From a virus (Duplodnaviria; Caudoviricetes): a stretch of 38,352 nucleotides of DNA. The notes under the pieces are model-generated. The model saw nothing but the letters and a program-made list of their open reading frames with translations, did no database searches and was not told the origin of the DNA. Where the stretch lies: positions 1-38,352 of the IMG/VR virus record IMGVR_UViG_3300037440_000188. One strand, given 5' to 3'. Shown in pieces: positions 14,650 through 37,832 of the stretch; within the stretch, counting starts at the first letter, position 1, and each line of letters begins with the position of its first letter. Position numbers and translations under genes: made by a program.

Positions 14650-15023
14650 CACTTATAGAACAGGTAGCAATGTTTTTACAAAATGAGGGAGTAGCTACTC
14701 TAACTACTGATATGTTTTTAAACTATCTACCGGACAATCCGGACAACGTAGTAGCTATAATAGATACAGGAGGAACTGAACCGGACACCTATTTACCTAC
14801 TAGAAGCCCTACATTTCAAATATTAGTTAGAAATAGTAATTATGATAACGGTAAGGCCAAACTAGACGAAATTAGGGACCTACTACACCAAAAAAAGGGT
14901 AATTTAGGCGCAGGGGATACTTATTTTTATTATATCTTTGCAACTGCGGAGGGTGGTAGTATAGGACACGACGTGCAGAATAGGGAAGAATTTAGTATAA
15001 ACTTTAGAGCTAGGACAAGATGA
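14646..15023 (+). CDS. Tail terminator-like protein
   Basis: PDNPDN...PTFQILVR...REEFSINF and synteny. Confidence 0.8.
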   Translation: MTLIEQVAMFLQNEGVATLTTDMFLNYLPDNPDNVVAIIDTGGTEPDTYLPTRSPTFQILVRNSNYDNGKAKLDEIRDLLHQKKGNLGAGDTYFYYIFATAEGGSIGHDVQNREEFSINFRARTR

Positions 15024-15247
15024 AACACAAAGGAAAGTTATATAGAGAGCTTCGCTGTCATGATTGCCGTAAATTAATTTGTTTCGAATATGTTTACGCC
15101 GGACGTGTTTTTTTTGATTGTCCGAGATGTGGAACACCTAACGAGTTCGTATTTAAACACTTGAAAACAACAGAAAACGAGGACAATATAAAGAAAGAGT
15201 TTACAATAGATAGTAATAAGTTAAAAAATAGGGAGGTGAATAATTAA
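15020..15247 (+). CDS. Com-like zinc-finger protein
   Basis: ELRCHDCRKL...DCPRCGTPN matches the Mu Com-family pattern. Confidence 0.7.
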   Translation: MKHKGKLYRELRCHDCRKLICFEYVYAGRVFFDCPRCGTPNEFVFKHLKTTENEDNIKKEFTIDSNKLKNREVNN

Positions 15248-18365: not shown

Positions 18366-20087
18366 ATGGCTTTAGCAATCACGACCACGGGACAAAATGG
18401 AATAACGCAAACTACTATTACCTTTTTAGGAAATATAACTAGTGTGGATACCCCAAACCCAACTAAACGGGGATTTCAATATAATACGGTACAATATCCG
18501 GACAAAGAAGTTTACGAAACAGGTAGTTTCGGAACGGGTAGTTTCTCTTTAGATATTACAGGTTTAACACCCGGGACAACGTACTATATAAGAGCTTTCG
18601 CCGAAGATGTAAACGGTACAGTATACGGGACTTGGATTACCGTAACTACGAGCAGTAGCGAATACAAAATAACAATAGACGGCGTAGACAGGACTAACGA
18701 CATTATTAACCAAACCCCGGTAATAGAAGACGCGATAAACGACCAACAAAATTTCTTAAGTTTTCAATTAATGGACTTAAATAGTATTGGTATACCTTCA
18801 AACGACGACGAAGTTATAGTTTATTTAGATGACGACACAAAGCTTTTTGGTGGAAATATTATTTCTATTGAAATGAGTAAAAAGACGACCGGTTCGGTAG
18901 TTGCTACTATTAGATGTGTAGACTATTCGCGCGTTTTAGATAGTAACCTAGTACATAAGTCTTACGAGGACATGACCGACAAGGCAATAATAGAAGATAT
19001 AGTAGCAACTTATTGTGCCGGACTAGATATTACGACGACTAATGTAGTAGAGGGGGTAACTATAGAACAGGTTAGTTTCAATTATGTGCAACCTAGCCAA
19101 GCTTTACGAAAAATAGCCGACTTAACCGGTAGAAATTGGTATATAGATTACGATAAGGATATACATTATTTCCCATTAACTACCAATACTACCCCTTTTA
19201 ATATTGATTCCTCTAACAATGAATATTACAACCTAAGAGTAAGTAAAGACGCTTCGCAGATAAAGAACAGAATTTACGTTAGGGGTGGTACTAAACTTTC
19301 CGACGAAACTACTTATTCAGAAAAAGGCGACGGAGAAAAACGTAAATTCGTTTTACCGGATAAACCGCATGCGGTAACTGTTACGGTAAACGGGGTAGAA
19401 AAAACTTTAGGTATAAAAAACGTAAACGCTGACGGGTTCGAATGGTATTTAAACTTTCAAGAAAAATACTTAGAACAGGACTCGACCGAAACTGTTTTAA
19501 GTACTTCGGACACTTTAGAGGTTACGTATAAATATGATATTCCTATTTTGGTAGCCTTAGAAAATTCCGCTTCTATTATAGAACATGGAATTAAGGAATT
19601 TGCAATTTTTGATAAGCAAATAAGTACTACTAAATCCGCTAGAGATAGAGCAAGCGCGGAACTTACAGACTACGCAAATAATATAATAGAGGGGAGTTTT
19701 AAAACCCTTACTACCGGTTTTACTTCGGGACAGTATATTAATATCAATCTTACCGAATACGGATTAAATGAGGATTATATAATACAAAAAGTAGTAGCGA
19801 ATTCGATAGGTGGTGGCGTATATGAATATACTATTTCAATGGCTAGCGCTAAGACTATGGGAATTATAAGGTTCTTGATAGAATTACTAGAAGACAATAG
19901 AAATTTAATTACACTAGACGAAAACGAAGTAGTGGACGAACTTTTTACTATTAACGATAGCCTTTTATCGGATAGTTTAGTAGATAGTTTAATTACAGAT
20001 AGCGCCGGGCCATACTCAACGTGGGCGGAAGGTGAAGAAACAGAACCGAACACAGTAGCAAAATGGGGTTTATTTCAATGGGGATAA
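18366..20087 (+). CDS. Tail tip hub protein with an N-terminal fibronectin-III domain
   Basis: ITGLTPGTTYYIRAFA (FN3), then WYIDYDKDIHY and IKNRIYVRGG hub motifs. Confidence 0.78.
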   Translation: MALAITTTGQNGITQTTITFLGNITSVDTPNPTKRGFQYNTVQYPDKEVYETGSFGTGSFSLDITGLTPGTTYYIRAFAEDVNGTVYGTWITVTTSSSEYKITIDGVDRTNDIINQTPVIEDAINDQQNFLSFQLMDLNSIGIPSNDDEVIVYLDDDTKLFGGNIISIEMSKKTTGSVVATIRCVDYSRVLDSNLVHKSYEDMTDKAIIEDIVATYCAGLDITTTNVVEGVTIEQVSFNYVQPSQALRKIADLTGRNWYIDYDKDIHYFPLTTNTTPFNIDSSNNEYYNLRVSKDASQIKNRIYVRGGTKLSDETTYSEKGDGEKRKFVLPDKPHAVTVTVNGVEKTLGIKNVNADGFEWYLNFQEKYLEQDSTETVLSTSDTLEVTYKYDIPILVALENSASIIEHGIKEFAIFDKQISTTKSARDRASAELTDYANNIIEGSFKTLTTGFTSGQYININLTEYGLNEDYIIQKVVANSIGGGVYEYTISMASAKTMGIIRFLIELLEDNRNLITLDENEVVDELFTINDSLLSDSLVDSLITDSAGPYSTWAEGEETEPNTVAKWGLFQWG

Positions 20088-20091
20088 AATT

Positions 20092-20550
20092 ATGTTAGAA
20101 AATAGAAACGAAATTATAGTACCAAAAGGAAAGGTTTTAATAGACCTTTATAATGTAATAACTAAAAAACACGATATACAATTAGTTAATAATTTAATTA
20201 CTACTTTAGGTAAAGAAGCATTAGCCGAAACCTTTATTTCTACCGTTGTGTTAGTTAGTTACTGCGCTTTAGGAACGGACGCAACAGCGCCCGACTTAGG
20301 GGATTCGCTTTTAGGTTCAGAATTGGCACGTAAACAAATTTCGGTAAAGAGTAGAGAAAATAACACTGTTACTTTTCAAACTTTTTTTACTACCGCCGAG
20401 GCTATAGGAGCATTAAAAGAGGCCGGTTTATTCGGTGGCAACGCGACAGGAACGGCCGATACGGGTAATTTGTTAGCTAAAACCGCTATAGATAGAAATA
20501 AAACGGCTAACGATACCCTTACTTTAACTTGGAGCATAGCAATAGGATAA
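20092..20550 (+). CDS. Baseplate or fibre-attachment protein
   Basis: NLITTLG, ALGTD, ELARK and LKEAGLF motifs. Confidence 0.72.
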   Translation: MLENRNEIIVPKGKVLIDLYNVITKKHDIQLVNNLITTLGKEALAETFISTVVLVSYCALGTDATAPDLGDSLLGSELARKQISVKSRENNTVTFQTFFTTAEAIGALKEAGLFGGNATGTADTGNLLAKTAIDRNKTANDTLTLTWSIAIG

Positions 20551-20572
20551 ATTTAATTTATAATAAAGATAT

Positions 20573-21412
20573 ATGGCAGTTACACACTCGGACCCAGTAC
20601 AAGCAGGAAACAACGCTAGAGCCTACGAGCATGGAAGGCTTAGAAACGATATACAAGCCGGTTGGATAAAACCACAATATAACACTAGTGGGGACGAAGA
20701 CGCGCCCGTTTATGCGATAGAAACTTGGACCTACGCAAGCGCTACAACTATTACAGTTCCTACGGGGGCGACTGAAAGATACCAAAAAGGCGATAAAATT
20801 AGGTTAAAACAGGGCGGAGCATACAAATATTTTACAGTTACTACGGTAGCTTCTACCCTACTTACTATAACTTCTAAAACTTATACACTTACAAACGATA
20901 CAATTACCGATAACTATGTATCTAAATTTGAAAATCCGGTAGGATTCGAAGGCGTAGGCGGAGGCGTACCCGTTGGCGGTATAATCGCTTGGAGCGGTAC
21001 AATTGCTAATATTCCGGGTAATTGGGCTTTGTGTGACGGTAACAATGGAACGCCTAATTTAAAAGCTAAGTTTTTAGTTGGCGCGGAATTTGAAAGCGGG
21101 GGGGCCGGAAACAATACTACTAGCTATAACGTGGGACATACGGGTGGAGAAAATACGCACACCCTTACAACTGATGAAATGCCCAGCCATACCCACACAC
21201 AAAATTCACATGCACATACAGGCACAAACGAGGGGGGCTATGCACGGGACGGAGGGGGCGCGGGTACCAATGTAGCCTCTAGGACAGCCGGAAGCGCTTA
21301 TGGTGTTATTACGGGTAGTGCAACCGCTACAAACCAGAATACAGGTGGTGGGGCTTCACATGAAAACAGACCACCTTACTATGCGTTGGCTTGGATTATG
21401 AGAATTTATTAA
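20573..21412 (+). CDS. Tail fibre with collar domain
   Basis: VPVGGIIAWSG...WALCDGNNGTPNL, GGENTHTLT.DEMPSHTH and HENRPPYYALAWIMR. Confidence 0.88.
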   Translation: MAVTHSDPVQAGNNARAYEHGRLRNDIQAGWIKPQYNTSGDEDAPVYAIETWTYASATTITVPTGATERYQKGDKIRLKQGGAYKYFTVTTVASTLLTITSKTYTLTNDTITDNYVSKFENPVGFEGVGGGVPVGGIIAWSGTIANIPGNWALCDGNNGTPNLKAKFLVGAEFESGGAGNNTTSYNVGHTGGENTHTLTTDEMPSHTHTQNSHAHTGTNEGGYARDGGGAGTNVASRTAGSAYGVITGSATATNQNTGGGASHENRPPYYALAWIMRIY

Positions 21413-21419
21413 AAAAATT

Positions 21420-22475
21420 ATGAAAAAAATACTTTTACAAAAATCACATATAAATATTAAAACAAATTCAATCGTAGCACTTAGAGGAAGTACGGGCGCG
21501 CCAAACGAGGCACAGTTTAATGAGGATATAGCAAATAGATTAAAATTAAGACTTGAAGAAACGGGAAAGTTTCAAGTTGTTATAGATGACGGTAACGCAA
21601 ACGACCATAGTACTACCATAAATACAGATTGGGACCTATTTCTATCTATACATTACGACGCGGATATATACAGGACCGGAGGTGGATTTGTTGACTTTCC
21701 GGAACCTTCTACAGACGGAGCAACGAAAGAATCCCAAAGAATAGCTAAGAACATAGAAGAGCAATATTTTGAAACTACAGGAATTAAAAACGTCCCTTCA
21801 CGTTCTAACGCTAATACTAGATATTATTATATGTGGAAGTATTTAACAGCTAAAACCCCATGCGTATTAATTGAATGCGGTGTAGGAATGCACAAACCCG
21901 ACGACTACAATATTTTACATAATAATAGAGATTTAGTAGTAGAGGGACTATATAAAGGTATAATGAAGTCTTTTAACTACAAACCACAACCAAAAGATTG
22001 GAAAAGTTATTTTAACTTTGATGTTACTAAAAGATTGTCCGAAGAAATACTAGAGGGATTAAGACTGAAAGAGGCCGTAAATTTTCCACTTAATACAGCG
22101 TTAGACAGTTTTAAAGATATTTGGAATGTTAGACACTCACAACACAAAAAAGAGCTAGAGAATAGAAAGGAGCAAGTAGAAAGACTAGAAGATTCTATAT
22201 TAAGGGAACAGGAATTAAGAAACGATTTAATAAAGGCTTTAGCAGATAAAGAAACAGCAATAACAAAAATGGCCGAAGCATACGAATTTAAGGTAGGAGA
22301 ATTAAACGAAATAATAAACGAAGTATCAAAAGAGAAGGGTAGGTTGATTTTAGAAAAAAATAAACTAGCTACCGAATTAGAATTATGTAAAAATAAAGAA
22401 TGTGTAGAAGAATTAACCGTAGCAGAAGTTTTATTATTAATTTTTGAAAAGCTTAAAGGCGTAAAATTGAAATGA
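21420..22475 (+). CDS. Endolysin: Amidase_3-like N-acetylmuramoyl-L-alanine amidase with a C-terminal coiled coil
   Basis: Zn-ligand pattern H..E..FLSIHYD..VLIECG. Confidence 0.85.
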   Translation: MKKILLQKSHINIKTNSIVALRGSTGAPNEAQFNEDIANRLKLRLEETGKFQVVIDDGNANDHSTTINTDWDLFLSIHYDADIYRTGGGFVDFPEPSTDGATKESQRIAKNIEEQYFETTGIKNVPSRSNANTRYYYMWKYLTAKTPCVLIECGVGMHKPDDYNILHNNRDLVVEGLYKGIMKSFNYKPQPKDWKSYFNFDVTKRLSEEILEGLRLKEAVNFPLNTALDSFKDIWNVRHSQHKKELENRKEQVERLEDSILREQELRNDLIKALADKETAITKMAEAYEFKVGELNEIINEVSKEKGRLILEKNKLATELELCKNKECVEELTVAEVLLLIFEKLKGVKLK

Positions 22476-22669
22476 AAACATTAAAAGAACACGTAGAAAC
22501 AGGGGCGAAATATAGCGGTAGCGCTATTACCCTATCCTTAGCAATAACAGAAATACTTGTTTTTGCGCGCCCGGATTGGGCGCCAATAGAGTTATATTTA
22601 TATGCTATTTTTACTTTTGGCGTTAACTTATTAATGATTTTCTTATTAAAGAACGGCTATAGTAAATAA
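22472..22669 (+). CDS. Holin-like protein (two TM segments)
   Basis: Two hydrophobic helices and a basic tail. Overlaps the endolysin stop. Confidence 0.6.
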   Translation: MKTLKEHVETGAKYSGSAITLSLAITEILVFARPDWAPIELYLYAIFTFGVNLLMIFLLKNGYSK

Positions 22670-22677
22670 ATGAAGTC

Positions 22678-23127
22678 ATGGAATTTGCGGAATTAGCTAC
22701 ACTAAATTCGGTTGGAGGTATAATAGCCTTAATTGTAATAGCCTACACAACGGTAACTAGATTTTTAGATAAAGAAGATAAGAAAACCGACCAGAAAAGA
22801 GCGGAATTAATTAGCTTACTGGAACGCGAAATATCCACTCTAAAAAATTGGCAAAAAGAAGCAGATTTAAAATTAATAAGTGCTACCGAAAAAATAACAG
22901 AACTAACCGCCCAAAATTCGCTACTTAGACAAATATTACAAGGAAAAGACGACGACAGTAAGGACTATAGAGCCAAGGCGATTAGCGCAATAGCTAAGCA
23001 AGATAATATTTTAGAAAGTATAAACAACCTATACAGATTAATAGAACAACATTTAAAAATAGATGAGGATGTACAAAAACAAAGATTAGAAATTGAAAAA
23101 AAAACCCTGAAAAGCAATTCTAAGTAA
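22678..23127 (+). CDS. Membrane-anchored coiled-coil protein (lysis cassette)
   Basis: N-terminal TM segment followed by a heptad-rich helix. Confidence 0.65.
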   Translation: MEFAELATLNSVGGIIALIVIAYTTVTRFLDKEDKKTDQKRAELISLLEREISTLKNWQKEADLKLISATEKITELTAQNSLLRQILQGKDDDSKDYRAKAISAIAKQDNILESINNLYRLIEQHLKIDEDVQKQRLEIEKKTLKSNSK

Positions 23128-23159
23128 ATTTACCCAGTACTAAAGCATTTATAAGAGGA

Positions 23160-23222
23160 ACGAAAAAGCACCCCTTGCGAGGTGCCTTATCGTTTGGTAT
23201 TATTCCAAGTATGAGTTATTCA
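23160..23222 (-). ncRNA. Putative ~60 nt small RNA (sRNA-1)
   Basis: Bracketed by a minus-strand promoter (23229-23257) and terminator (23163-23185). No ORF. Confidence 0.65.
23163..23185 (-). terminator. Intrinsic terminator, minus strand
   Basis: GCACCTC-GCAA-GGGGTGC then TTTTT. The GNRA loop and G.U pair work only on the minus strand. Confidence 0.82.
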
Positions 23223-23228
23223 AATACA

Positions 23229-23257
23229 ATCATAGCACGAAAATACAAGACATACAA
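23229..23257 (-). promoter_or_regulatory. Sigma70-type promoter with extended -10, minus strand
   Basis: TTGTAT-17 nt-TATGAT with TGn immediately before the -10. Confidence 0.72.
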
Positions 23258-23280
23258 CCACGCGTAGACGTGGTTTTTTT
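23256..23280 (+). terminator. Intrinsic terminator of the late/lysis transcript
   Basis: AACCACG-CGTAGA-CGTGGTT followed by a T run. Confidence 0.78.
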
Positions 23281-23285
23281 GTTGC

Positions 23286-23480
23286 CTATTTTGCTAATAG
23301 ACTAGTGTTTTTAAGTAAAGATACTAGCCTATCATTAAGATAGGAGAGGTCACAACGATATAAGGTAAAATGAGAGTACGCGCCGTTATCGTTGGTAGGG
23401 ATTATTTGGACCCTAAACATTTAAAGCGTACAACACACTAACGCGTGAAAGTTAGTAGGAAAAAACAACCTTGCAAGGAT
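23286..23480 (+). ncRNA. Dense hairpin array with a possible pseudoknot (structured RNA or origin)
   Basis: At least six abutting stems. Loop GTACGC (23376-81) is complementary to GCGTAC (23426-31). Confidence 0.45.
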
Positions 23481-23498
23481 TCATATAAACTTTAGTAC

Positions 23499-23533
23499 TA
23501 AAAAGGAAACACCCCGACATTTAAGCCGGGGCG
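23499..23533 (-). terminator. Intrinsic terminator, minus strand
   Basis: CGCCCCGGC-TTAAAT-GTCGGGGTG (two G.U pairs on the minus strand) then TTTCCTTTTT. Confidence 0.75.
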
Positions 23534-23631
23534 AGTAAGGTATTGTATTAGCGTTATTAATTAAGTGCGCTAGTTTTTAATATCTTTTTTCAAGAGGTAA
23601 ACAAAATACAGCCTTCTTCGTGAAAAGTTTA
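23500..23631 (-). ncRNA. Putative ~130 nt small RNA (sRNA-2)
   Basis: TATAAT on the minus strand at 23638-23643, terminator at 23499-23533, internal stems, no plausible ORF. Confidence 0.45.
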
Positions 23632-23640
23632 ATACCTATT

Positions 23641-23671
23641 ATATAAGTTATATTACCAATGTAAGTTACAT
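23641..23671. promoter_or_regulatory. Two related 13 bp palindromes (operator-like)
   Basis: ATATAA-G-TTATAT at 23641-53 and ATGTAA-G-TTACAT at 23659-71. Confidence 0.6.
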
Positions 23672-23723
23672 GTGTAGTTAATGTAAAACCTTTGTAAAAA
23701 AAACAGCAAATTTAAAAAAAAGT

Positions 23724-23951
23724 ATGAATCCTAATCTAATCTATTATAAAACTTCCTTAGTTGGTTTTAATTCTAGTAAACACTACGGTATAGGAACCGA
23801 TAATTTTTATAACTTGTGGTTAAAATCATTACAAAAAAAGCAGTTCAAAAGTGACGGTTGGAAATACGAATACCTTTACAAGTGGGCCTTAGAAAACACC
23901 GACAAAGTTAAAAGTTTCATAGATAAAGAATTTCCAAAAATAAACACTTGA
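23724..23951 (+). CDS. Hypothetical protein
   Basis: 75 aa ORF, the first gene after the control region. Confidence 0.65.
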   Translation: MNPNLIYYKTSLVGFNSSKHYGIGTDNFYNLWLKSLQKKQFKSDGWKYEYLYKWALENTDKVKSFIDKEFPKINT

Positions 23952-23977
23952 CATTTATAATACATTTGTAATACACT
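23948..23977 (+). promoter_or_regulatory. Early promoter P1
   Basis: TTGACA-18-TACACT with the shared spacer motif. Confidence 0.75.
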
Positions 23978-24004
23978 AGATACAGTATTAAATTATTCAA
24001 AAGT

Positions 24005-24217
24005 ATGATTAATAAAAAAAGTTTTAAAAGTGTATTACAAAACCTTAAAAGGGATTGTAAAGTATTAGACGAAGACAAAATAGCAATGTACCTACACGGC
24101 GGATATACTGTAGAAGAAATATTAGAAATTGACTTTTTACATTATGAAGAATTACAGGACGAAGCATGCGAAGCACGTGTAGAAAATTATTTAACTTCCG
24201 AAGATTGGGGGTGGTAA
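24005..24217 (+). CDS. Hypothetical acidic protein
   Basis: 70 aa ORF downstream of P1. Confidence 0.7.
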   Translation: MINKKSFKSVLQNLKRDCKVLDEDKIAMYLHGGYTVEEILEIDFLHYEELQDEACEARVENYLTSEDWGW

Positions 24218-24220
24218 AAA

Positions 24221-24451
24221 GTGGTTTATTTAGAAATTGAGGAAAAGGACATTCCTAATATTTGTAAAATTTTAAAAGAAGCCACCGAAAAACTTAGAAG
24301 GAAAGAAAAACAAATAGTATTTAGTGATGACAGTAAAATTTGTTATAGAAAAGAGTTGGAAGAATTAGACAATAAATTATTACTATTATTAAGTTTAACT
24401 ATTCAGTTAGAAACTGAATTACAAAGGTTACAAAATGAAAATAACAATTAA
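24221..24451 (+). CDS. Hypothetical coiled-coil protein
   Basis: GTG start after GGGGGTGG. Tightly packed ORF. Confidence 0.62.
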   Translation: MVYLEIEEKDIPNICKILKEATEKLRRKEKQIVFSDDSKICYRKELEELDNKLLLLLSLTIQLETELQRLQNENNN

Positions 24452-24692
24452 AGAAAAAGAATCAACTAGGGATATTTCAGTAAAATACAAAGATTTAGAA
24501 CACGGGGAAACTATCGTAAGACTAAGATTATATATAGATATGGAACGAAAAAAAGCTAAATTTCAGTTTGTAAACGGCGCCGGTGAACCTATTAGTATGC
24601 ATACTAATGACCGCCTAGGTTATAAAGATTTTGACGCTGTTAGTTTATTATTTCAAACGGCACATAACGAAATAAAAAAATTAGATAACTAA
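24435..24692 (+). CDS. Hypothetical protein
   Basis: 85 aa overlapping ORF. Confidence 0.65.
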   Translation: MKITIKEKESTRDISVKYKDLEHGETIVRLRLYIDMERKKAKFQFVNGAGEPISMHTNDRLGYKDFDAVSLLFQTAHNEIKKLDN

Positions 24693-24721
24693 TTGACTAG
24701 ATAAGACATTCATAATACAAT
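24693..24721 (+). promoter_or_regulatory. Early promoter P2
   Basis: TTGACT-17-TACAAT, 8 nt before ATG 24730. Confidence 0.78.
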
Positions 24722-24729
24722 ATAGGTAT

Positions 24730-24927
24730 ATGAAGAATCAAGGACATTTAAACCGCAGAAAAAGGGTAGAAAATGTATGGAAAAGAATATACAACGCTTA
24801 CTACGAAGATAATAGACCGGTAAAAGAAATACTAGAAGAATTCAAGAACCCGAAAACCGGTAGGCCTTATAGTAGGAGCCACTTTTATTTCATACTAGAC
24901 CAAGTAAAAGAGTCACTAAAAAATTAA
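24730..24927 (+). CDS. Small basic HTH-like DNA-binding protein
   Basis: PVKEIL...GRPYSRSHFYFIL helix-turn-helix-like pattern. First gene of the P2 operon. Confidence 0.55.
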   Translation: MKNQGHLNRRKRVENVWKRIYNAYYEDNRPVKEILEEFKNPKTGRPYSRSHFYFILDQVKESLKN

Positions 24928-24943
24928 TAAATTATTCCAAAAT

Positions 24944-25762
24944 ATGAGTACAAAAGAAACAAACGAAGAAGTAAAAAAAGACAAAGACAAAGAATTAAAA
25001 ATTTACCATTCACTAGCGCCCAAGAATGTAAAACCCGAAGTCTATTTACAGTTGGTAAAGGACCAAATAATGGGTAGAGATAAAAAAGGCAATTCGAGAA
25101 GTACCGAAGAAACAATGCTATTTTTATACACTTGCCAAAGAACCGGATTAGACCCAATACTAAAACAAATACACCCCGTTTTTAGGTGGAGTAGTAGCCA
25201 TGGTAAGGAGGTAATGAGTATACAAACAGGTATAGACGGTATGAGATTAGTAGCACAAAGAACCGGGAAATATGCAGGTGCCGAGGATATAAAATATAAT
25301 CCAGAAGACGAAAGTTTAGATTATCCACATACCGCAACGGCAACAATTTACAAATTTATTGGCGGACATAGAGTGGCTTTTACAGGTACCGCACGTTGGA
25401 AAGAATTTGCCGTAACAGATAAAGCCGGAAAACCCGAATTTATGTGGGCAAGAATGCCTTACCACATGTTGGGTAAATGTGCCGAAGCTTTAGCGCTTCG
25501 TAAAGCGTTTCCTAATGAACTATCCGGCGTTTACGCTAAAGAGGAAATGGAACAGGCCGAAGAAGTTTTAAACAAGTTACCAACTCCGGAAAGATTTAAC
25601 AAAGAGGAAAAAATAGAAGTTGAACACGGTAGACCCGCAGATATGAAAGTAGAGGAAGTAAAACCAAAAAATACTAGCGTGGCCGATATGCGTAATAATT
25701 TAAAGGACAAACGAAATGGAAAGCAAGATAAACCTACGAAGCCTAGTGCCGGTAAAGTTTAA
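24944..25762 (+). CDS. bet: Bet/RecT-family single-strand annealing recombinase
   Basis: GLDPILKQI, IQTGIDGMRLVAQRTG and W..MP.HML.KCAEALALRKAFP. Confidence 0.92.
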   Translation: MSTKETNEEVKKDKDKELKIYHSLAPKNVKPEVYLQLVKDQIMGRDKKGNSRSTEETMLFLYTCQRTGLDPILKQIHPVFRWSSSHGKEVMSIQTGIDGMRLVAQRTGKYAGAEDIKYNPEDESLDYPHTATATIYKFIGGHRVAFTGTARWKEFAVTDKAGKPEFMWARMPYHMLGKCAEALALRKAFPNELSGVYAKEEMEQAEEVLNKLPTPERFNKEEKIEVEHGRPADMKVEEVKPKNTSVADMRNNLKDKRNGKQDKPTKPSAGKV

Positions 25763-25973
25763 AGATAAAAACGGTAGGGGAGGAATAAAGATTAATTTAA
25801 AGGAAGCGTTCGGATTTATTCCAAAGGAAATCGTTGTGCAAAAAGTACAAAACGAAAATAACAAAATTGTTATATCCGCAGTAATTTCAAGTATAAAAAA
25901 TGAAAAAAGAACAGATAGAAAACAAAATAGCGGAGTTAAAGGAAAAACTAGACGAAATACAAGAAAAGCTTAA
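25716..25973 (+). CDS. Hypothetical basic protein
   Basis: 85 aa ORF bridging bet and the next gene. Confidence 0.6.
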   Translation: MESKINLRSLVPVKFKDKNGRGGIKINLKEAFGFIPKEIVVQKVQNENNKIVISAVISSIKNEKRTDRKQNSGVKGKTRRNTRKA

Positions 25974-26094
25974 ATTGACGGTTAACGAGCCTTTAACTTA
26001 CCAAAATAAAGAACTAATAAAAGAGCTGTATTCTGAAAGAAGGGACAAACATAACGAATTAGAACATTTTAACAATTTACTTAAAAAATCATGA
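25900..26094 (+). CDS. Hypothetical coiled-coil protein
   Basis: 64 aa. ATGA overlap with ssb. Confidence 0.65.
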   Translation: MKKEQIENKIAELKEKLDEIQEKLKLTVNEPLTYQNKELIKELYSERRDKHNELEHFNNLLKKS

Positions 26095-26510
26095 GTTTAT
26101 ACAACGTAAACAGGGCCACATTATTAGGAAATTTAGTTAAGGAACCGGAGGTAAGAACTACCCCAAACGGTACTACTGTTTGCACTCTTAACATGGCTAC
26201 AAACAATTCAAAAAAGAGCGGGGATAGTTGGGAGGACGTACCAACTTTTCATAGATTAGTAGCTTTTGGAAAAACCGCGGAATTTTGCGGTAAAAACTTA
26301 TCAAAAAGTAGTAAAGTATATGTAGAAGGTAGAATAGAAAATAGAAGCTACGAACAGAACGGAGAAAAAAAATATATTTCCGAAATAGTAATAGATAAAA
26401 TAATATCAATGGCCCAAAGTAACAACAATTCATTTAGCAACGAACCAAGTTACGATAGTCAAGATAACGAAGAAAGAGTAGACCCCGACGAAGTACCAAA
26501 TTTCTTATAA
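26091..26510 (+). CDS. ssb: Single-stranded DNA-binding protein
   Basis: NRATLLGNL..EPEVR, VYVEGRIENRSYE and an acidic C-terminal tail. Confidence 0.96.
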   Translation: MSLYNVNRATLLGNLVKEPEVRTTPNGTTVCTLNMATNNSKKSGDSWEDVPTFHRLVAFGKTAEFCGKNLSKSSKVYVEGRIENRSYEQNGEKKYISEIVIDKIISMAQSNNNSFSNEPSYDSQDNEERVDPDEVPNFL

Positions 26511-26525
26511 ATTTTAGGAAAAAAC

Positions 26526-26738
26526 ATGCCCTACATTAAAAACGCATTATATAGCAATCTATTAAAACAACTTAGTAGACTAGAAAAGGATAATTTCGAA
26601 GTATATAGAAAGTATGAATTTTGCCAAGAATCTTTAGACAAGAAAAGGGAAACCCCATTTGGTATAAAAGCTTATTACATGCTATTAGGTTGGTTAATAT
26701 CTACTTTAGCATTTATATTGGCAAGTGTTATCAACTAA
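26526..26738 (+). CDS. Hypothetical protein with a C-terminal TM segment
   Basis: 70 aa with a hydrophobic tail. Confidence 0.65.
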   Translation: MPYIKNALYSNLLKQLSRLEKDNFEVYRKYEFCQESLDKKRETPFGIKAYYMLLGWLISTLAFILASVIN

Positions 26739-27037
26739 TGAATTGGACTAAATATTGGATAAGAGAAAGAAACAAACTAAAAAAGGTTTTTCTTGATAAA
26801 GGTATAACTACTTGCGAAGTATGTATAGAAGACGTTTGTTTTTACGATAACTATTTAGGATTTGCACATAGATATAAAAGGAAGTGGTATTACGAAAAGG
26901 ATAAAAGACATTTATTAGGGGACTTTAACCATGTAATACTTGCTTGCAATCCCTGTCATTTTCAACTCGAACGGGATAAGTATCTAACTAGAGATTATTT
27001 TAGAAAATTACGCCCGGATTATGAGGAAGGACATTAA
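26738..27037 (+). CDS. Zn-binding HNH-like nuclease
   Basis: CEVC...FAHR...LACNPCH. Start placed at the TAATG overlap rather than at 26621. Confidence 0.65.
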   Translation: MNWTKYWIRERNKLKKVFLDKGITTCEVCIEDVCFYDNYLGFAHRYKRKWYYEKDKRHLLGDFNHVILACNPCHFQLERDKYLTRDYFRKLRPDYEEGH

Positions 27038-27320
27038 AAAAGTAAAAATAGTCTTTACTCAACACGCTATACAAAGAATAGGGAATAGGCCGTGGAAAGA
27101 TATATTTAATGGAATAAGAGAAGGTAAAAAAGAAAAACTACAAGAAAAGAAATACAAGAATAGTAAGTATGGCGAGGAACAAGAAGGTATTTTTTATAGG
27201 CGCTTCGGTAGTTGGGTTTTTACTCTTAAATATGTAGAAGATGACTATCAACCCGGAGAAGAAATGCTTTTATTAATAACCTTTACCGACCAAAAAGAGA
27301 ATTTCTATTTTAGTACTTGA
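27021..27320 (+). CDS. Hypothetical protein, RelE/DUF4258-like fold candidate
   Basis: IVFTQHAIQRI start and C-terminal LLITF strand. Confidence 0.5.
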   Translation: MRKDIKKVKIVFTQHAIQRIGNRPWKDIFNGIREGKKEKLQEKKYKNSKYGEEQEGIFYRRFGSWVFTLKYVEDDYQPGEEMLLLITFTDQKENFYFST

Positions 27321-27346
27321 CATTAATAATACATTCATAATATACT
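27317..27346 (+). promoter_or_regulatory. Early promoter P3 (leaderless)
   Basis: TTGACA-18-TATACT, 6 nt before ATG 27353. Confidence 0.8.
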
Positions 27347-27352
27347 AATAAC

Positions 27353-27778
27353 ATGATAATAAAAATGGAAAATTTAGAAAACCTAGTAGCAGAAGCGGAC
27401 AAAATAGTGTTAGACCCTAGAGCCGAGGACGTACTGATAAAGCTACTAGATTTACAAGAACAGGTAGAGAAAGCGTTAAAGGAAGCCAAAGAAAGAATAG
27501 AAAAAAAAGCTTTAGAAATGAACCCAAATGTTCAAAGTATTAGAAGCGATAGATTAAAAGTTTTTTACAGACAATACGGTAGCAGATATAAAATAGACGA
27601 ATCGTATTTAGACCAAATACCAAAAGAATTATATACAAGTAAAACCGTATATTCTCCGGTCCCTAAAGCTATAGACGAGTGGACCCGAAAAAACGACGGC
27701 ATGCCAATTGGTATTATAGAACCCGAAAGACCCAAACAATTAAGTTTTAGTAAAAGGGAGAAGGCAGACCATGAATAA
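27353..27778 (+). CDS. Hypothetical coiled-coil protein (recombination-module associated)
   Basis: 141 aa. Precedes the nuclease gene. Confidence 0.72.
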   Translation: MIIKMENLENLVAEADKIVLDPRAEDVLIKLLDLQEQVEKALKEAKERIEKKALEMNPNVQSIRSDRLKVFYRQYGSRYKIDESYLDQIPKELYTSKTVYSPVPKAIDEWTRKNDGMPIGIIEPERPKQLSFSKREKADHE

Positions 27779-28343
27779 ATTTAGAGCAAGTTACAGCGTT
27801 TTAAGTACATGGAATAGCGGACAATGGGATAGAGCCGTAAAAATGTATTTTAAATTAGACACATTTAAAACCGAAGCAATGGCGGACGGCCAAGAATTCC
27901 ACGAGCTTTGGAAAGCTGAAACCGATAAAACTAAATGTTTACCTGAAATTTTCGGAGGTAAGGAACTAATAGACCCTAAAACAGAATTAAAACTAGTAGT
28001 ACCTATAGAAGAATGGTTAGACCTAGTAGGAGTAATTGACTGTATAGACGGTAATACTATTTACGAGTATAAAAGCGGTAAAACCTCTAGTGAAGTCTAC
28101 GCGAATGGAGTACAACCCGGAATATATGGGGTTTTAGCTACTTATGGCGGGATGTTCGTGGATAGGTGCGAAATAATGCATTACGACCAATATACTAAAA
28201 AACTAGATACGTCTATAATTCATTTAACGGATAAACTGTTAGACGATACGCATAATTGGATTTTAAGTATATCAAGCGAAATGCAAAGTTATTTATTAGA
28301 TAATAACCTTTATAAAATTCTTGGAAAACAAAATGAAAGATAA
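27771..28343 (+). CDS. PD-(D/E)xK nuclease (probable exonuclease partner of Bet)
   Basis: SYS, G.EFH, E.KL, GVIDCI, IYEYKSG and Q..IY motifs. Confidence 0.85.
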   Translation: MNKFRASYSVLSTWNSGQWDRAVKMYFKLDTFKTEAMADGQEFHELWKAETDKTKCLPEIFGGKELIDPKTELKLVVPIEEWLDLVGVIDCIDGNTIYEYKSGKTSSEVYANGVQPGIYGVLATYGGMFVDRCEIMHYDQYTKKLDTSIIHLTDKLLDDTHNWILSISSEMQSYLLDNNLYKILGKQNER

Positions 28344-28926
28344 GGCCCAAAATATAGTACTGTATACGTCTTTAATTATAATAGTGGTTAGCCTATTCGG
28401 TATTTTCTCCGAAACCACTAAATTATTAGACCGAAAAACAGAATATTTAATGCCACTAATAGAAGGAACGGACTTTAGCACATTAGAAAATTGTAAACAT
28501 ATAGAAAGTGGCGTTTATATTTGTACCGATAATTCCGAATATTCTTTAGAAGAACTTTTAAAAGGCCGGGAAGTTGAGGAAAACATGCAAATTCCTAATA
28601 ACGATATAAAGAAAACAGTCTATACCGGTAAAGCTAGCTATTATTGGTTAGGTGGTTGTATAGGTTGTAGAGATGACCGAATAATGGCCAACGGTGAACC
28701 CTTGGACGATACAAAGTTAACTGTAGCGTTTAATAGAGCGCCTTTAAATTCCTACGTTAAAGTATGTAATGTAAATAACGAGTTATGTATAGAAGCTAAA
28801 GTAACAGACACCGGAGGATTTGAAGATTTAGGAAGAATAATAGATTTAGGACTAAGTACAAAGAATTCTATAAGATGTTTCGATTTATGCGACGTATCGG
28901 TAGAATTAATAGAAGATAACGGCTAA
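28333..28926 (+). CDS. Membrane-anchored RlpA-like double-psi beta-barrel (lytic transglycosylase-like) protein
   Basis: N-terminal TM. GKASYY, MANGE, VKVCN..N, KVTDTG and RIIDL motifs. Confidence 0.85.
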   Translation: MKDKAQNIVLYTSLIIIVVSLFGIFSETTKLLDRKTEYLMPLIEGTDFSTLENCKHIESGVYICTDNSEYSLEELLKGREVEENMQIPNNDIKKTVYTGKASYYWLGGCIGCRDDRIMANGEPLDDTKLTVAFNRAPLNSYVKVCNVNNELCIEAKVTDTGGFEDLGRIIDLGLSTKNSIRCFDLCDVSVELIEDNG

Positions 28927-28978
28927 TCTCACCCCCGCGGTTCGTGGTTGGGCAGGACATGGACCGCCGAGGTTAGCC
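28921..28978 (+). other. Long GC-rich intergenic stem-loop
   Basis: 28921-30 pairs with 28969-78 and 28937-46 pairs with 28958-67, using three G.U pairs on the + strand. Confidence 0.75.
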
Positions 28979-29005
28979 ACTATTTTTTATTAATTTATTT
29001 CAAGT

Positions 29006-29503
29006 ATGGAAACAATAAAACAAGCTAAAGAACAGTTACGCGAAGAATGGGAAAAGGGTACTACTTGCCCTTGTTGCAATCAAAGAGTTAAGTTATATAA
29101 GAGAAGAATAACCGGAAGCATGGCGGTAGGACTAATATTTTTTAGTAATTACTACTTTGACAATAAAATAGACCCGGTAGAATATTTAAAACCCATTAAT
29201 GTATTTAATAAAATTAAAGATACAACTACTTACAACGTACATAATCTAAATACTAATTTCGCTTTACTTAGATATTGGGAACTTATAGAGCCTTTAAAAG
29301 AAGAAAGGGCCGACGGTAGCAATAGAAATGGTTTTTACAGAATAACCAATAGAGGTTACAAGTTTATAGCGGGTACTTTAGAAGTTCCGAAATTAGTAAA
29401 ACTTTATAACCAAAAAACTAAGGGATTTGACGCGCAAGAAATGGTTACTATTAAAGATTGTTTAGGTACTAAATTTAATTATAAGGAGTTAATGGAATGT
29501 TAA
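29006..29503 (+). CDS. Hypothetical protein with a CPCC motif, possibly winged-helix
   Basis: CPCC and LRYWELIE...GFYRITNRG. Confidence 0.7.
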   Translation: METIKQAKEQLREEWEKGTTCPCCNQRVKLYKRRITGSMAVGLIFFSNYYFDNKIDPVEYLKPINVFNKIKDTTTYNVHNLNTNFALLRYWELIEPLKEERADGSNRNGFYRITNRGYKFIAGTLEVPKLVKLYNQKTKGFDAQEMVTIKDCLGTKFNYKELMEC

Positions 29504-29709
29504 AAATAAAGGAATATGACAAAACCCCGGCCGGATTCGTAGGCAGAAAAGCAGATTATAAATTAATGAGGGCTAGAGGTTGGGAAGTAATACAGGAAGA
29601 GGAAGTAACTAGCTTTAACGGAAAAAAAGGTTGTTTGTTTTTTATAATATTTCCACCTTTAGCATTGTTGGCTAGAAGTAAAAAAGTAAAAGTTACTTAC
29701 GAAAAATGA
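29497..29709 (+). CDS. Small membrane protein
   Basis: Hydrophobic segment GCLFFIIFPPLALLA. Confidence 0.65.
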   Translation: MLKIKEYDKTPAGFVGRKADYKLMRARGWEVIQEEEVTSFNGKKGCLFFIIFPPLALLARSKKVKVTYEK

Positions 29710-29870
29710 TTAACCAATACAATTTTATCGCATTAATAAAAATAGCTAATAGTTACAAAGAAGAATTAGGAAGGTTAGAAGAAATAATAAAACAAGGAGA
29801 AAAAAAAGGGGTTTTAGTTTCTACGGCTTACTATATACAACGTGATTATTTAAAATCCTTAATTAAATGA
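29706..29870 (+). CDS. Hypothetical protein, 54 aa (absent from the ORF track)
   Basis: ATGA overlaps at both ends. Confidence 0.6.
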   Translation: MINQYNFIALIKIANSYKEELGRLEEIIKQGEKKGVLVSTAYYIQRDYLKSLIK

Positions 29871-29977
29871 AAAAGAAAAGTAAAAAAGCAAAATGGGAGC
29901 TATTCCACAACTGTATACATTGTAAGGCGTACATAGCTTTGTATTTGTGTCCTTATTGCGGGAAAAAAAGTATATGA
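29867..29977 (+). CDS. 36 aa Zn-ribbon microprotein (absent from the ORF track)
   Basis: CIHC...CPYCG with ATGA overlaps at both ends. Confidence 0.6.
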   Translation: MKKKSKKAKWELFHNCIHCKAYIALYLCPYCGKKSI

Positions 29978-30105
29978 AACTAATACACATAATCTTTTAC
30001 ATTTTCGCCGTAATTATAGCTTTACCTTTAATAGGCTTATACAAATTTACAAGCTTATTCATAAAAAGGAAAAGTGAAAAAGTAAAGTACGAGGATTATT
30101 ACTAA
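29974..30105 (+). CDS. 43 aa single-TM microprotein (absent from the ORF track)
   Basis: MKLIHIIFYIFAVIIALPLIGLY... with an ATGA overlap. Confidence 0.55.
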   Translation: MKLIHIIFYIFAVIIALPLIGLYKFTSLFIKRKSEKVKYEDYY

Positions 30106-30121
30106 ATTTAAGGGAAATAAT

Positions 30122-30805
30122 ATGAACAACGAAAACACAACTAATACAAATTGCAACTATTGCAACTATTGCGACTCTTGCAACTATTGCAACTATTGCG
30201 ACTCTTGCAACTATTGCAACTATTGCAACTATTGCGACTCTTGCAACTCTTGCAACTATTGCAACTATTGCGACTCTTGCAACTATTGCAACTATTGCGA
30301 CTCTTGCAACTCTTGCAACTATTGCAACTATTGCGACTCTTGCAACTATTGCAACTATTGCGACTCTTGCAGGAATCTAAAAATGACGGAATATAATACG
30401 TTCTGCTATTCAGAGAGTTACAACGATGAAAACAGCTTTCAACAGAAAAGATTTAGGGTTTTTAATAAAGAACTTGAAAAAGAAGAATATTTTTCAGTAA
30501 AAAATAAAGTTGAGGCTATTCTTGACGGACTTAAACTTGAATTGAATGAAAATTCTTGGACTGAGGAATGGGAAAAAGTAACCTCAAAACAATGGGTAAA
30601 ACTCTTTGAATTAGCCGTAGAGGTGCGTGGTGATAACTTTAAAGAAGGTTTTGAGTTTATAAGTGGTATTAATCTTGATTTTGTTAAAGAGCCTGTAGAA
30701 GACGTAACAGAGGAAGAAATTAAGATGATATTAAAATTTATTAAACAGAATTTAAATATAATAGCAAAGGTTATAGAATTATTAAGGGGTCGGAATGAAC
30801 AATAA
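30122..30805 (+). CDS. Cys-rich (Cxx)n repeat protein
   Basis: 24 CNY/CDS/CNS tripeptides followed by a helical domain. Confidence 0.85.
   Translation: MNNENTTNTNCNYCNYCDSCNYCNYCDSCNYCNYCNYCDSCNSCNYCNYCDSCNYCNYCDSCNSCNYCNYCDSCNYCNYCDSCRNLKMTEYNTFCYSESYNDENSFQQKRFRVFNKELEKEEYFSVKNKVEAILDGLKLELNENSWTEEWEKVTSKQWVKLFELAVEVRGDNFKEGFEFISGINLDFVKEPVEDVTEEEIKMILKFIKQNLNIIAKVIELLRGRNEQ
30152..30370 (+). repeat. 24 x 9 bp tandem repeat with three variants
   Basis: Only TGCAACTAT, TGCGACTCT and TGCAACTCT occur. Confidence 0.97.
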
Positions 30806-31253
30806 ACAAATATTAAACAAAATAAAAAACTTAGAAAAAGAGTCAGAAAAATTAACAAGAGAATTAGAGGAATTAAAGAGAGAAGTAAGCGAGGATAAAG
30901 GGTTTGTGGATGGTGAGGAATATTATTTTTTATATCCTGATGGTAGCATAAGCAATTATGTGTTTGATAAAAACCTTACTATAAACCCAAACCTAGTAAA
31001 ACTAGGCACAATAGCCCGTACACCGGAAGAACTTGAAAAACTTAAACTTAAACTGGAAAGTATTGCACAACGAGGGAGAGAGCCAGAGGAAGATGAGGAG
31101 TCTTGGTATTGGAGTTTTTTTAACAATTGCCCTTTCCAAGTACTATACAGCTCACTACATTTCTCTGTGTACCACGCCATAGGAGCAGTACACAAAACAG
31201 AGGAAGATTGCAGAGCGTGGGGAGATAAATTTGCGGGAGCATTTAAGGATTAA
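30795..31253 (+). CDS. Hypothetical protein (coiled coil plus two internal repeats)
   Basis: GEEYYFL...GTIART and EESWYW...GAVHKT segments. Confidence 0.72.
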   Translation: MNNKQILNKIKNLEKESEKLTRELEELKREVSEDKGFVDGEEYYFLYPDGSISNYVFDKNLTINPNLVKLGTIARTPEELEKLKLKLESIAQRGREPEEDEESWYWSFFNNCPFQVLYSSLHFSVYHAIGAVHKTEEDCRAWGDKFAGAFKD

Positions 31254-31255
31254 AT

Positions 31256-31552
31256 ATGAAAAATAAAGAACTAGAGGGTAAAGAAAAAATAAAAGTAACG
31301 TTCAAAGTACATTTTATTGAAATTAAACGTAACATTTCAGAAATATATCAAGATTTAGATGTTATAGATAAAATGTTACTTGATTGCGGTATTAAACCTA
31401 ATCCAATCCAACAAGAAATACTTAAAAAAATGGTAAAAACTAACAAGAAATATAAGATGTTCTTTCCAATAAGATATAGATTAAATTCCTATACGCCTTA
31501 TTTTTCGTCATTATTAATTAAGGCAATTAAGAAACAAACCAAAAAGGATTAG
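31256..31552 (+). CDS. Hypothetical protein
   Basis: 98 aa tightly packed ORF. Confidence 0.62.
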   Translation: MKNKELEGKEKIKVTFKVHFIEIKRNISEIYQDLDVIDKMLLDCGIKPNPIQQEILKKMVKTNKKYKMFFPIRYRLNSYTPYFSSLLIKAIKKQTKKD

Positions 31553-31554
31553 TT

Positions 31555-31881
31555 ATGAAAAATAAAGAACTAAAGAAAATAATAACGGACTTTATACTAA
31601 GGACTACTAACGCAAATAACTCATCTATAAAAGTAAACAACTTGGATTTAGAAATATTAGAAAAAGAACTACTAGCTTGGAGGGATAAGGAAAATAAATT
31701 AATGAATGAAATAAGGAAGAGAGATTTTCTACTTCTTACAGCTATTCTAAAAGACGAACTTGAGGGAAGATTATTTGATGACCAAACCGAAGCTATTATA
31801 CAGGCAGTATTGGATAGGTATAATAAGATGTTTGTGCCGAGAAGTAATGATGCAGTTAACAATTTTAAAGAAACTGAATAA
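31555..31881 (+). CDS. Hypothetical protein
   Basis: 108 aa. Same first six codons as the previous gene. Confidence 0.65.
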   Translation: MKNKELKKIITDFILRTTNANNSSIKVNNLDLEILEKELLAWRDKENKLMNEIRKRDFLLLTAILKDELEGRLFDDQTEAIIQAVLDRYNKMFVPRSNDAVNNFKETE

Positions 31882-32135
31882 TGCCACACATAATAAAAAG
31901 AACTAAACATAAAAAAACACCTATGTGGGGGTTGTGGAGTACTATAGTAGATGCCTATATTACAGACTATGACTATTTTCCATACAAATTTTTAAGTTTT
32001 GATAAGGTACTTAATCTTTATTTCGACAAGAGGATTGGGCATATCAGGGAAGACCTACAATACTGGGAAAATGAAAGAGCTAAGTTTATTAATGCAAACT
32101 ATGAAGAAATTAACAAATTCAAAGAAAAGGAGTAG
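31881..32135 (+). CDS. Hypothetical protein
   Basis: 84 aa with a WSTIVDAYIT motif. TAATG overlap. Confidence 0.68.
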   Translation: MPHIIKRTKHKKTPMWGLWSTIVDAYITDYDYFPYKFLSFDKVLNLYFDKRIGHIREDLQYWENERAKFINANYEEINKFKEKE

Positions 32136-32137
32136 GT

Positions 32138-32455
32138 ATGGAAAAATTAAGACTCTCTCATAAAGAAAAGTTAGCTTTTAAATATTACGCTGACCTTTTT
32201 TATGAATACGGAGATGAGGCTTTTGCCTATAATAGTGCTGTATGTAAATATGCAGGTCTTACTTATAAAGAGGTTACTAGCTTTAATAAAAAGTTAAGGA
32301 GTTTGGATTTACTGGAATATAAAAGAGGTTTGTTTGATGATGAAGGCATGACCGCAGGAAGTGGAAATGCTTTAACTAGGAAAGGCTATGATTATTTTAT
32401 CAAATTATGGAATCAGAGAGTAGAAAAACAAACCAAAAAGGAGGGTGGGGAATGA
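32138..32455 (+). CDS. Winged-helix-like hypothetical protein
   Basis: AGLTYKEV...KLRSLDLLEY...ALTRKG. AAGGAG SD. Confidence 0.62.
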   Translation: MEKLRLSHKEKLAFKYYADLFYEYGDEAFAYNSAVCKYAGLTYKEVTSFNKKLRSLDLLEYKRGLFDDEGMTAGSGNALTRKGYDYFIKLWNQRVEKQTKKEGGE

Positions 32456-32613
32456 ACAGACTAGCGGAACGTATAAGTAAGACTATTATAGCAGTAATAG
32501 TATGTTGGCTACTTTTACCTATAATTTTAGTAGCGGTTACTTTAATTTGTGCGTTAATACCCTTTATAGCATTTATTAAACCTGAAATAGTAAAAATAAA
32601 TGAAAAAAACTAA
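32452..32613 (+). CDS. Small membrane protein
   Basis: GGAGGGTG SD and ATGA overlap give the start MNRLAER. Long hydrophobic stretch. Confidence 0.6.
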   Translation: MNRLAERISKTIIAVIVCWLLLPIILVAVTLICALIPFIAFIKPEIVKINEKN

Positions 32614-32836
32614 TAAAATAAATAATTATGATACTTACCTAGAGGAGTTAAAAAGGTGTCCTTTTTGTGGTGGAGTTCCTAAAGCTTATTTGAAAGGAAA
32701 CGAATATACAAAGAAAACATTTATAACTGTAAAGTGTACTAAATGCGGAGTAGAAAGAGTTACAGGTTCAATCACCAAAGACCTTAAATGGTTAGAGGAT
32801 AAAGCTATTAATTTATGGAATGAAAGAATAAAATGA
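32600..32836 (+). CDS. Lar-like (restriction alleviation family) Zn-ribbon protein
   Basis: ELKRCPFCGG...VKCTKCG...AINLWNER. Confidence 0.78.
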   Translation: MKKTNKINNYDTYLEELKRCPFCGGVPKAYLKGNEYTKKTFITVKCTKCGVERVTGSITKDLKWLEDKAINLWNERIK

Positions 32837-33084: not shown

Positions 33085-33108
33085 CTGTTTTTAGGTTATA
33101 ATTACTAT

Positions 33109-35221: not shown

Positions 35222-35247
35222 TCAAGTTCTGATATAATAAAATTAAT

Positions 35248-36816: not shown

Positions 36817-36821
36817 AAACT

Positions 36822-37727: not shown

Positions 37728-37731
37728 TAAA

Positions 37732-37760: not shown

Positions 37761-37832
37761 TAGCATAAGGTATTTATAAATTTAAGGCGTTTGTAGCGTG
37801 GACTTACCACGTTAAAAAAACGAAACTACAAT

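Follow-up and report, generated by a model that had tools for sequence, protein, structure and literature searches.

A predicted antisense RNA facing a leaderless transcription unit at the late/early junction of a Caudoviricetes genome

Results

A compact cassette separates the late and early genes

The window analysed here is the whole virus record of 38,352 bp. PHROGs annotation of its 59 proteins identifies genes for head, tail, terminase, portal, Bet and SSB; integrase, CI-type repressor, polymerase, helicase and primase are absent from the assignments. Every assigned gene lies on the + strand. The cassette described below occupies part of a 600-bp gap between the end of the last late gene at 23127 and an ORF at 23724, with promoter P1 (23948) downstream (Table 1). 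Two early promoters, at 24693 and 27317, start leaderless genes whose ATG lies 6-8 nt past the -10 box, a habit shared by relatives. The sequencing runs listed for this sequence comprised six DNA runs and none of RNA; contigs from four of the six left the cassette uncovered and gave no variants.

Several other features of the genome were recorded. Beyond the cassette, 23285-23720 is a hairpin-rich non-coding stretch, and G-runs occur at this place in relatives (L017:7700-7800; L154:9800-9830; L219:4880-4900); since the window has no recognised replication initiator, the origin may lie here. A weak HTH match was found at the N-terminus of the ORF that follows the leader in L206. Following the major head gene, eight ORFs of more than 170 aa (1184-8970), conserved across the family and including two glycosyltransferases and two methyltransferase-like proteins, possibly serve virion or surface glycosylation. 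A 227-aa ORF at 30122-30805 (PHROG 15341, no assigned function) carries an N-terminal Cys-rich tandem repeat of CNY/CDS units, and a tail-operon gene at 15020-15247 encodes a Mu Com-like zinc-ribbon protein that scores just below the Pfam cut-off.

Table 1 Features of the cassette, its predicted targets and the leaders that occupy the same slot in relatives
Feature	Position	Strand	Remarks
Promoter P_L	23229-23257	-	-35 TTGTAT (23257-23252), 17 nt, extended -10 TG-c-TATGAT (23237-23229)
Predicted antisense RNA-L, ~62 nt	23160-23221	-	5' ~22 nt form the pairing seed, CAU at nt 9-11; start site inferred
Terminator T_L of RNA-L	23163-23185	-	Stem 23185-23168, GCAA loop, U-tail 23167-23163
Facing promoter P_R	23175-23203	+	TTGCGA-17-TG-g-TATTAT, 7 nt before ATG 23211; -35 inside T_L hairpin
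Leaderless mini-ORF, 18 codons	23211-23267	+	First 11 nt perfectly complementary to RNA-L 5' end; stop in T_R loop
Terminator T_R	23256-23282	+	Ends predicted ~72-nt RNA-R and probably the late transcript too
Predicted trans target, ORF 24005 start region	23992-24008	+	Weakest target; first gene past promoter P1 (23948)
HTH-like gene, 65 aa	24730-24927	+	Conserved; directly upstream of bet; candidate protein regulator
Predicted trans target, bet (24944) start region	24931-24949	+	Annealing-gene start, the sole target common to all three phages
Predicted trans target, ORF 29006 start region	28995-29009	+	PHROG 2693, no assigned function; 15 contiguous pairs
Loop/target type GGCAAG/CTTGCC	L014:7717-7900, L074:6015-6215, L013:6938-7130, L177:14744-15000		TGGCAA in L215:4250-4460
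Loop/target type GCGAAG/CTTCGC	L015:935-1125; L007:3660-3850		Shifted by one base in L007
Loop/target type CCAAGC/GCTTGG	L075:7668-7850		

A minus-strand promoter and terminator enclose a predicted short non-coding RNA

An earlier sequence-only reading had proposed a self-contained minus-strand unit in which a promoter and a GCAA-loop terminator enclose about 60 nt with no ORF. Both signals lie where that reading had placed them and delimit ~62 nt, and no minus-strand ORF of at least nine codons fits wholly between the predicted start and the terminator. P_L was absent from the list of a consensus scanner because its -35 matches at only three of six positions; a relaxed scan found it. Shuffled sequence yields promoter-like and terminator-like sites no less often than does 20000-38352 itself, so the promoter alone proves little. 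The 62-nt RNA-L folds at -22.1 kcal/mol (z -5.7), with its 5' 13 nt unpaired: the seed consists of an open 5' tail and a weak 4-bp stem, and the terminator is the only strong helix. Rfam gave no credible match for the cassette region, and no c4 (RF01695) match up to E 10 in 22900-24100.

That shuffle result and the weak P_L -35 are what would be expected if AT-rich intergenic DNA merely happened to hold a terminator and no functional RNA. This explanation is hardly credible: the four-part layout is present in three phages with different letters and nowhere else in 3.36 Mb, and the shuffle nulls given below speak against it as well. RNA-L is very probably a real functional unit.

A second minus-strand unit lies at 23665-23500, with a CTTACA-16-TATAAT promoter, a terminator at 23533-23510 and a length of ~130 nt. 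A segment of the predicted RNA chosen after the fact, nt 17-44, pairs at -19 to -21 kcal/mol with SD and start in the major head gene (141), the major tail gene (15249) and 2409, which 21 of 3000 shuffles matched. This unit could be a late-gene repressor.

The same layout with different letters occurs in two relatives

Family members were fetched with alignments of Bet, the 18366 tail protein, 27771 and 24730; they are syntenic, with roughly 45-70% protein identity. No nucleotide similarity to the cassette was found in the syntenic members examined, yet a structural scan placed the same cassette, written in different letters, at the same late/early junction of L156 (G001) and L212 (G002). Their minus-strand promoters are near-consensus (TTGACT-18-TATAAT in G001, TTGAAA-17-TATAAT in G002), and the predicted RNAs of 62 and 60 nt carry CAU near the 5' end and a terminator and fold with z -6.3 and -4.1. 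The three cassettes align poorly, with 38 of 151 columns invariant. Directly upstream of the G001 cassette, at L156:15560-15640, lies a second promoter-terminator-like minus-strand unit with no clear targets.

In 271 sequences (3.36 Mb, redundant and distant loci included), a strong P_R (score at least 10) combined with P_L and T_L was found only in these three cassettes, the window being the discovery case. Twenty further genome stretches held no fourth. A degenerate cassette pattern run against viral contigs gave, among the at least 40 matching loci listed, one in the family, which was G002; G001 fits the pattern yet was not among the matches listed. Locus searches with single proteins returned nothing for bet and 22678 in viral contigs or for terminase in genome contigs, and aligning the bet starts of 69 loci locally, with wobble pairs allowed, produced too much noise for cassettes to stand out.

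A putative leaderless plus-strand unit faces the predicted antisense RNA

Contrary to the earlier proposal, the minus-strand unit is not self-contained. In all three cassettes a P_R-type promoter faces P_L (TTGCGA/TATTAT, TTGCCA/TAGAAT and TTTACA/TAAAAT in the window, G001 and G002), its -35 starting 36 nt before an ATG each time. This leaderless signature precedes 3 of 558 + strand ATGs in the window, 8 of 488 in G001 and 8 of 584 in G002; the other two in the window are the early starts 24730 and 27353. The mini-ORFs of 18, 33 and 16 codons stay open to the 5' arm of T_R in all three cases, with a joint shuffle probability of 0.012. In G001 a further terminator follows the lysis genes, and T_R is therefore not needed there to end the late transcript.

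Given the facing leaderless P_R, RNA-L has a perfect target in cis. At AUG/CAU the facing transcripts would share 11-13 nt (11 nt in the window) and form a duplex of -13 to -15 kcal/mol. An opposite-strand promoter of its own and an overlap with the start of the sense transcript, as in a P22 sar-type RNA, are thus predicted for all three cassettes.

Conservation of the 18-codon ORF at 23211 in place of the RNA had been named as the finding that would speak against an antisense RNA. The opposite was found: the mini-ORF peptides differ in length and are unrelated in sequence, and a conserved peptide was rejected. Overlapping short sense and antisense RNAs with a small ORF also recall a type I toxin-antitoxin system for plasmid-prophage maintenance, with the peptide as toxin and RNA-L as antitoxin. 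Such a system calls for a small, hydrophobic, conserved toxin. The divergence of the peptides, the hydrophilic, basic character of the window's own, which has no membrane helix, and the overlap of only 11-13 nt make this reading very improbable, and it leaves the bet match described next unexplained.

In the window, RNA-L is predicted to pair best with three early start regions

The sequence-only reading had also matched the 5' part of RNA-L to the starts of 24005, bet and 29006. All three matches are present, and that to 29006 forms 15 contiguous pairs. When the 22-nt seed was paired with 58 start regions (-25 to +15), bet (-17.7 kcal/mol), 29006 (-17.0) and 24005 (-13.9) ranked first, second and third, ahead of the next at -11.2, and they did so for three seed lengths. 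Correction for opening energy kept this order (-13.0, -9.4 and -8.5; next start -8.0), leaving 24005 ahead by 0.5 only. The top-3 sum of -48.6 compares with a shuffle mean of -28.7 (sd 4.1) and was reached by none of 1500 CAU-preserving shuffles, as the earlier reading had anticipated. With non-start ATG contexts in place of the seed, 0 of 460 reached the observed ratio to self-energy, but 53 of 460 reached the raw sum. These computed pairings, short, imperfect, above background and directed at several distant mRNAs by a free-standing RNA, are those expected of a trans-encoded multi-target sRNA.

The expectation that the three starts would also rank at the top genome-wide held in part. In a + strand scan, self match aside, bet was third and 29006 seventh, two coding-region sites outranking bet, and 24005 lay outside the best 25. 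The proposed lack of an SD does not distinguish the targets: only 18 of 58 starts pair with the anti-SD at -5 kcal/mol or better, so that SD absence is the norm in this genome, and we rejected it as a mark. The ungapped 18-mer has no second copy within three mismatches, and its four exact matches in viral contigs lie in unrelated contexts with no flanking similarity. The 80-nt gap directly before 29006 (28926-29005) is G+C-rich and hairpin-like.

The motif shared by the cassette and the early starts might instead be bound by a protein: HTH-like 24730 could use it as a DNA operator, or Com-like 15020 could recognise it in RNA. In either case the copy in the cassette would be an extra site or decoy. 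Both proteins are encoded in the window. An AT-rich box is common to three early promoter spacers (23948-23977, 24693-24721 and 27317-27346), with related boxes in relatives, and a similar box at 23223-23240 overlaps the P_L -10. We regard a protein site as quite improbable as the origin of the motif, which differs from phage to phage in the three despite conservation of the HTH protein and which is always in register with an AUG; in addition, both core differences at 29006 permit G-U pairs, in counts too small for a test of wobble direction. The AT-rich box is itself a candidate operator of the 24730 protein. A weak HTH_7 match was found in 5 of 13 homologues of 24730 and not in the window's own protein, which may share the repressor job with RNA-L or be the main repressor.

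Each seed is complementary to the annealing-gene start of its own phage

Immediately after the conserved HTH-like gene, the window and G002 encode Bet and G001 encodes ERF (PF04404, E 3e-37). Every seed finds its complement at the annealing-gene start of the same phage, which ranked 1 of 59 starts in the window, 2 of 56 in G001 and 2-3 of 65 in G002 (seeds of 20, 24 and 28 nt), whereas the six cross-genome pairs, each RNA against the annealing-gene starts of the other phages, ranked 16-59. The observed energy was reached by 0 of 3000 shuffles for the window, 0-1 of 3000 for G002 and 46-115 of 3000 for G001 (p 0.015-0.04). True starts used as mock seeds reached the observed rank in 0/58, 1/55 and 1/64 cases and the observed energy in 0/58, 8/55 and 0/64 (window, G001 and G002); non-start ATGs reached the rank in 0, 3 and 2 of 150.

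As a predicted RNA-target pair, Bet in G002 is an independent strong case and ERF in G001 a weak one. In G001 the pairing with the ERF start reaches -11.7 kcal/mol with bulges, an energy attained by 19 of 150 other ATGs; by identity only, ERF falls outside the top five. The best G001 match is to a late gene. In G002, three of the top four targets (8563, 11433 and 3489) are leaderless promoter starts, inflated by shared -10 boxes. A 7-bp hairpin covers nt 13-29 of the G002 RNA, and its 30-nt seed pairs with two late window starts as well as with its own best targets.

The proposal of an RNA aimed at early starts was thus supported in part, and extended. Pairing with the annealing gene and its specificity for the own phage were seen in three phages, and the matches to 24005 and 29006 in the window only, since neither has a homologue among the listed G001 and G002 early ORFs. 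The expected covariation of RNA and target is strong in G002 and weak in G001, with three cases in all.

RNA-L might act in cis only, where together with promoter interference it would control the mini-ORF and read-through of T_R. The cassette would then be a translation-coupled attenuator that shields the non-coding region beyond it, and the matches to bet and the other targets would be by-products of similar starts. The constant arrangement of P_R, leaderless ATG and ORF running to T_R suits this reading, as do the promoter-leader-terminator unit that fills the slot in relatives (see below) and the fact that similarity between starts is common, 8 of 58 true starts in the window resembling other starts at least as well. 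Yet the bet match takes in 10 nt upstream of the ATG, which are absent from the predicted RNA-R, no mock seed from a true start equals the bet energy in the window or G002, and the pairing is specific to the own genome. We consider action in cis alone rather unlikely, and RNA-L probably represses bet in trans.

Other RNA-like leaders occupy the slot in most examined relatives

In many relatives the slot holds a + strand promoter, a variable-loop hairpin and a leader that contains the loop's complement twice and ends in a U-run and ATG. Of 21 junctions tested, nine returned a word with two downstream complements and 12 returned none. Loop and targets covary in this C4/CI-like module, in at least three types (Table 1); the match in L183 falls inside the leader, and by eye the module is also present in L152, L183 and L012. 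Rfam gave nothing at gathering score in seven relatives and no c4 match in the L014 junction. The loop and its two targets recall P4 CI and P1 c4, and the module resembles c4 more than RNA-L does. RNA control at the junction looks like a family trait, with the window cassette an apparently unrelated occupant of the slot.

A tyrosine integrase was found in 2 of 22 records, none of them the window, G001 or G002, and HTH_3 exceeded the cut-off in 0 of 22. The latter fits a missing CI, but the conserved HTH-like 24730 is present. The lack of a detected integrase and CI-type repressor in the three phages, together with the evidence for targets in trans, would suit a lytic timer: RNA-L would accumulate and damp Bet and other early proteins with no carrier state or immunity, P_R being incidental or a decoy. 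This we hold to be unlikely, as P_R stands at the exact leaderless spacing in all three cassettes and the slot is common to C4/CI-like modules whose loops vary between phages, as immunity types would.

Searches of cultured phages gave three distant matches at 26-27% identity, and a search of 401 genomes from the phylum of G039 with the HTH alignment returned no match. As hints of the host, family contigs are binned in MAGs titled Patescibacteria, Aquaspirillum and PVC group.

Discussion

At this junction two promoter-terminator units face each other, their RNAs would overlap by 11 nt over AUG/CAU, and the layout recurs in two relatives. On balance, we favour the reading that the minus-strand RNA is an early-gene antisense repressor acting in cis and in trans, as one half of a facing-promoter switch. 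P_L would make RNA-L, which in trans would mask the start codon, together with the 5-13 nt before it, in the annealing gene and a few early genes, and in the window block initiation at bet, 29006 and 24005 through 15-17 base pairs. In cis it would cover the AUG of the leaderless mini-ORF; with initiation blocked there, no ribosome would reach T_R, which would then form and stop + strand transcription ahead of the non-coding region and the early genes. Firing of P_R, the 72-nt RNA-R and the fully complementary 3' end of the late mRNA would counteract RNA-L, through interference between the promoters and through titration. At high levels RNA-L would keep recombination and early-gene output low, in a carrier state or at late shut-off, and low RNA-L, as on fresh infection, would allow lytic growth. 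We speculate, since no replication initiator was recognised, that Bet-dependent recombination may matter for lytic replication and that Bet may be a sensible control point.

The promoter of sar faces the promoter of its target. P22 sar is an antisense RNA of ~68 nt with its own promoter that covers the translation start of a phage gene and favours the non-lytic state; it has one cis target, ant, pairs perfectly over a long stretch and works beside protein repressors (PMC12197685, PMC7968456). RNA-L is predicted to be of similar size, with its own opposite-strand promoter, and would cover a translation start; unlike sar, it would overlap its cis partner by 11-13 nt on a leaderless mini-ORF and has predicted trans targets. 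Neither the arc-ant operon nor a blocked antirepressor, which define sar, was found here: the cis partner is an 18-codon ORF with no arc/ant family match.

P4 is not known to need a protein immunity repressor. Its CI RNA causes premature termination by pairing with seqA and seqC and is processed from the transcript that it regulates (PMC4825925). The inferred cis action at T_R parallels such RNA-based termination control, and the layout fits. RNA-L differs in coming from the opposite strand, with its own promoter and terminator in place of a same-strand processed leader between two flanking targets, and in controlling termination via ribosome loading on a leaderless ORF; membership in the P4 CI type was rejected.

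P1/P7 c4 represses genes of its own phage by short pairing near translation starts, and sequence changes give phage-specific control; its structured RNA presents loops that pair with sites on ant mRNA (PMC12197685, PMC2864571). Its Rfam entry, RF01695, is listed in PMC2864571. Unlike c4, RNA-L has an open 5' tail and a terminator, and its predicted common target is a recombinase. With no covariance-model match, a seed that is not displayed in a loop and no antirepressor target, membership in c4 was rejected. PHROGs assigned no antirepressor among the 59 proteins; a divergent one is possible among the ORFs with no assigned function. The early region of lambda encodes OOP, a 77-nt minus-strand RNA transcribed from a promoter of its own, which targets cII mRNA in cis via RNase III (PMC12197685); the passage on OOP in that paper describes no multi-target start-codon pairing of the kind predicted for RNA-L.

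In its mode of action the cassette would work like sar plus a trans-acting sRNA, and on this comparison it falls outside c4, CI and sar proper. No description of the facing-unit layout was found in the literature searched, which consisted mainly of abstracts, most subscription journals lying outside it. Table S1 of PMC12197685, with 38 phage sRNAs of unknown function, and an additional file of PMC2864571 may bear on the novelty of the cassette.

The sequence-only reading had seen in the RNA a substitute for a missing CI protein. A role of RNA-L as immunity repressor is possible, though we put it forward tentatively. Equally tentative is the fullest reading, an RNA-built life-cycle switch in which facing transcripts cancel at AUG/CAU, one silencing early genes and the recombinase, whether Bet or ERF, with its aim renewed after gene replacement, and the other gating read-through by leaderless translation. 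Exchangeable with the separate, uncatalogued C4/CI-like module, such a switch would provide phage-specific RNA immunity in a mostly integrase-less family, possibly of Patescibacteria phages.

The antisense repressors of phages, sar, c4, CI and OOP, come from a few enterobacterial models and mostly have a single target. Here the prediction is of one RNA with a leaderless mini-ORF as its cis target and the recombinase as its trans target, its aim on the annealing gene being kept even in the phage in which ERF replaces Bet. The parts have sigma70-type signals and measure less than 130 bp, so that they are testable in a laboratory E. coli reporter with no need for the native host. Different RNA-like leaders stand in this slot in most relatives examined, and in many of them a loop covaries with two targets. 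This suggests how early genes are controlled in a large family that lacks a recognisable CI and, for the most part, an integrase.
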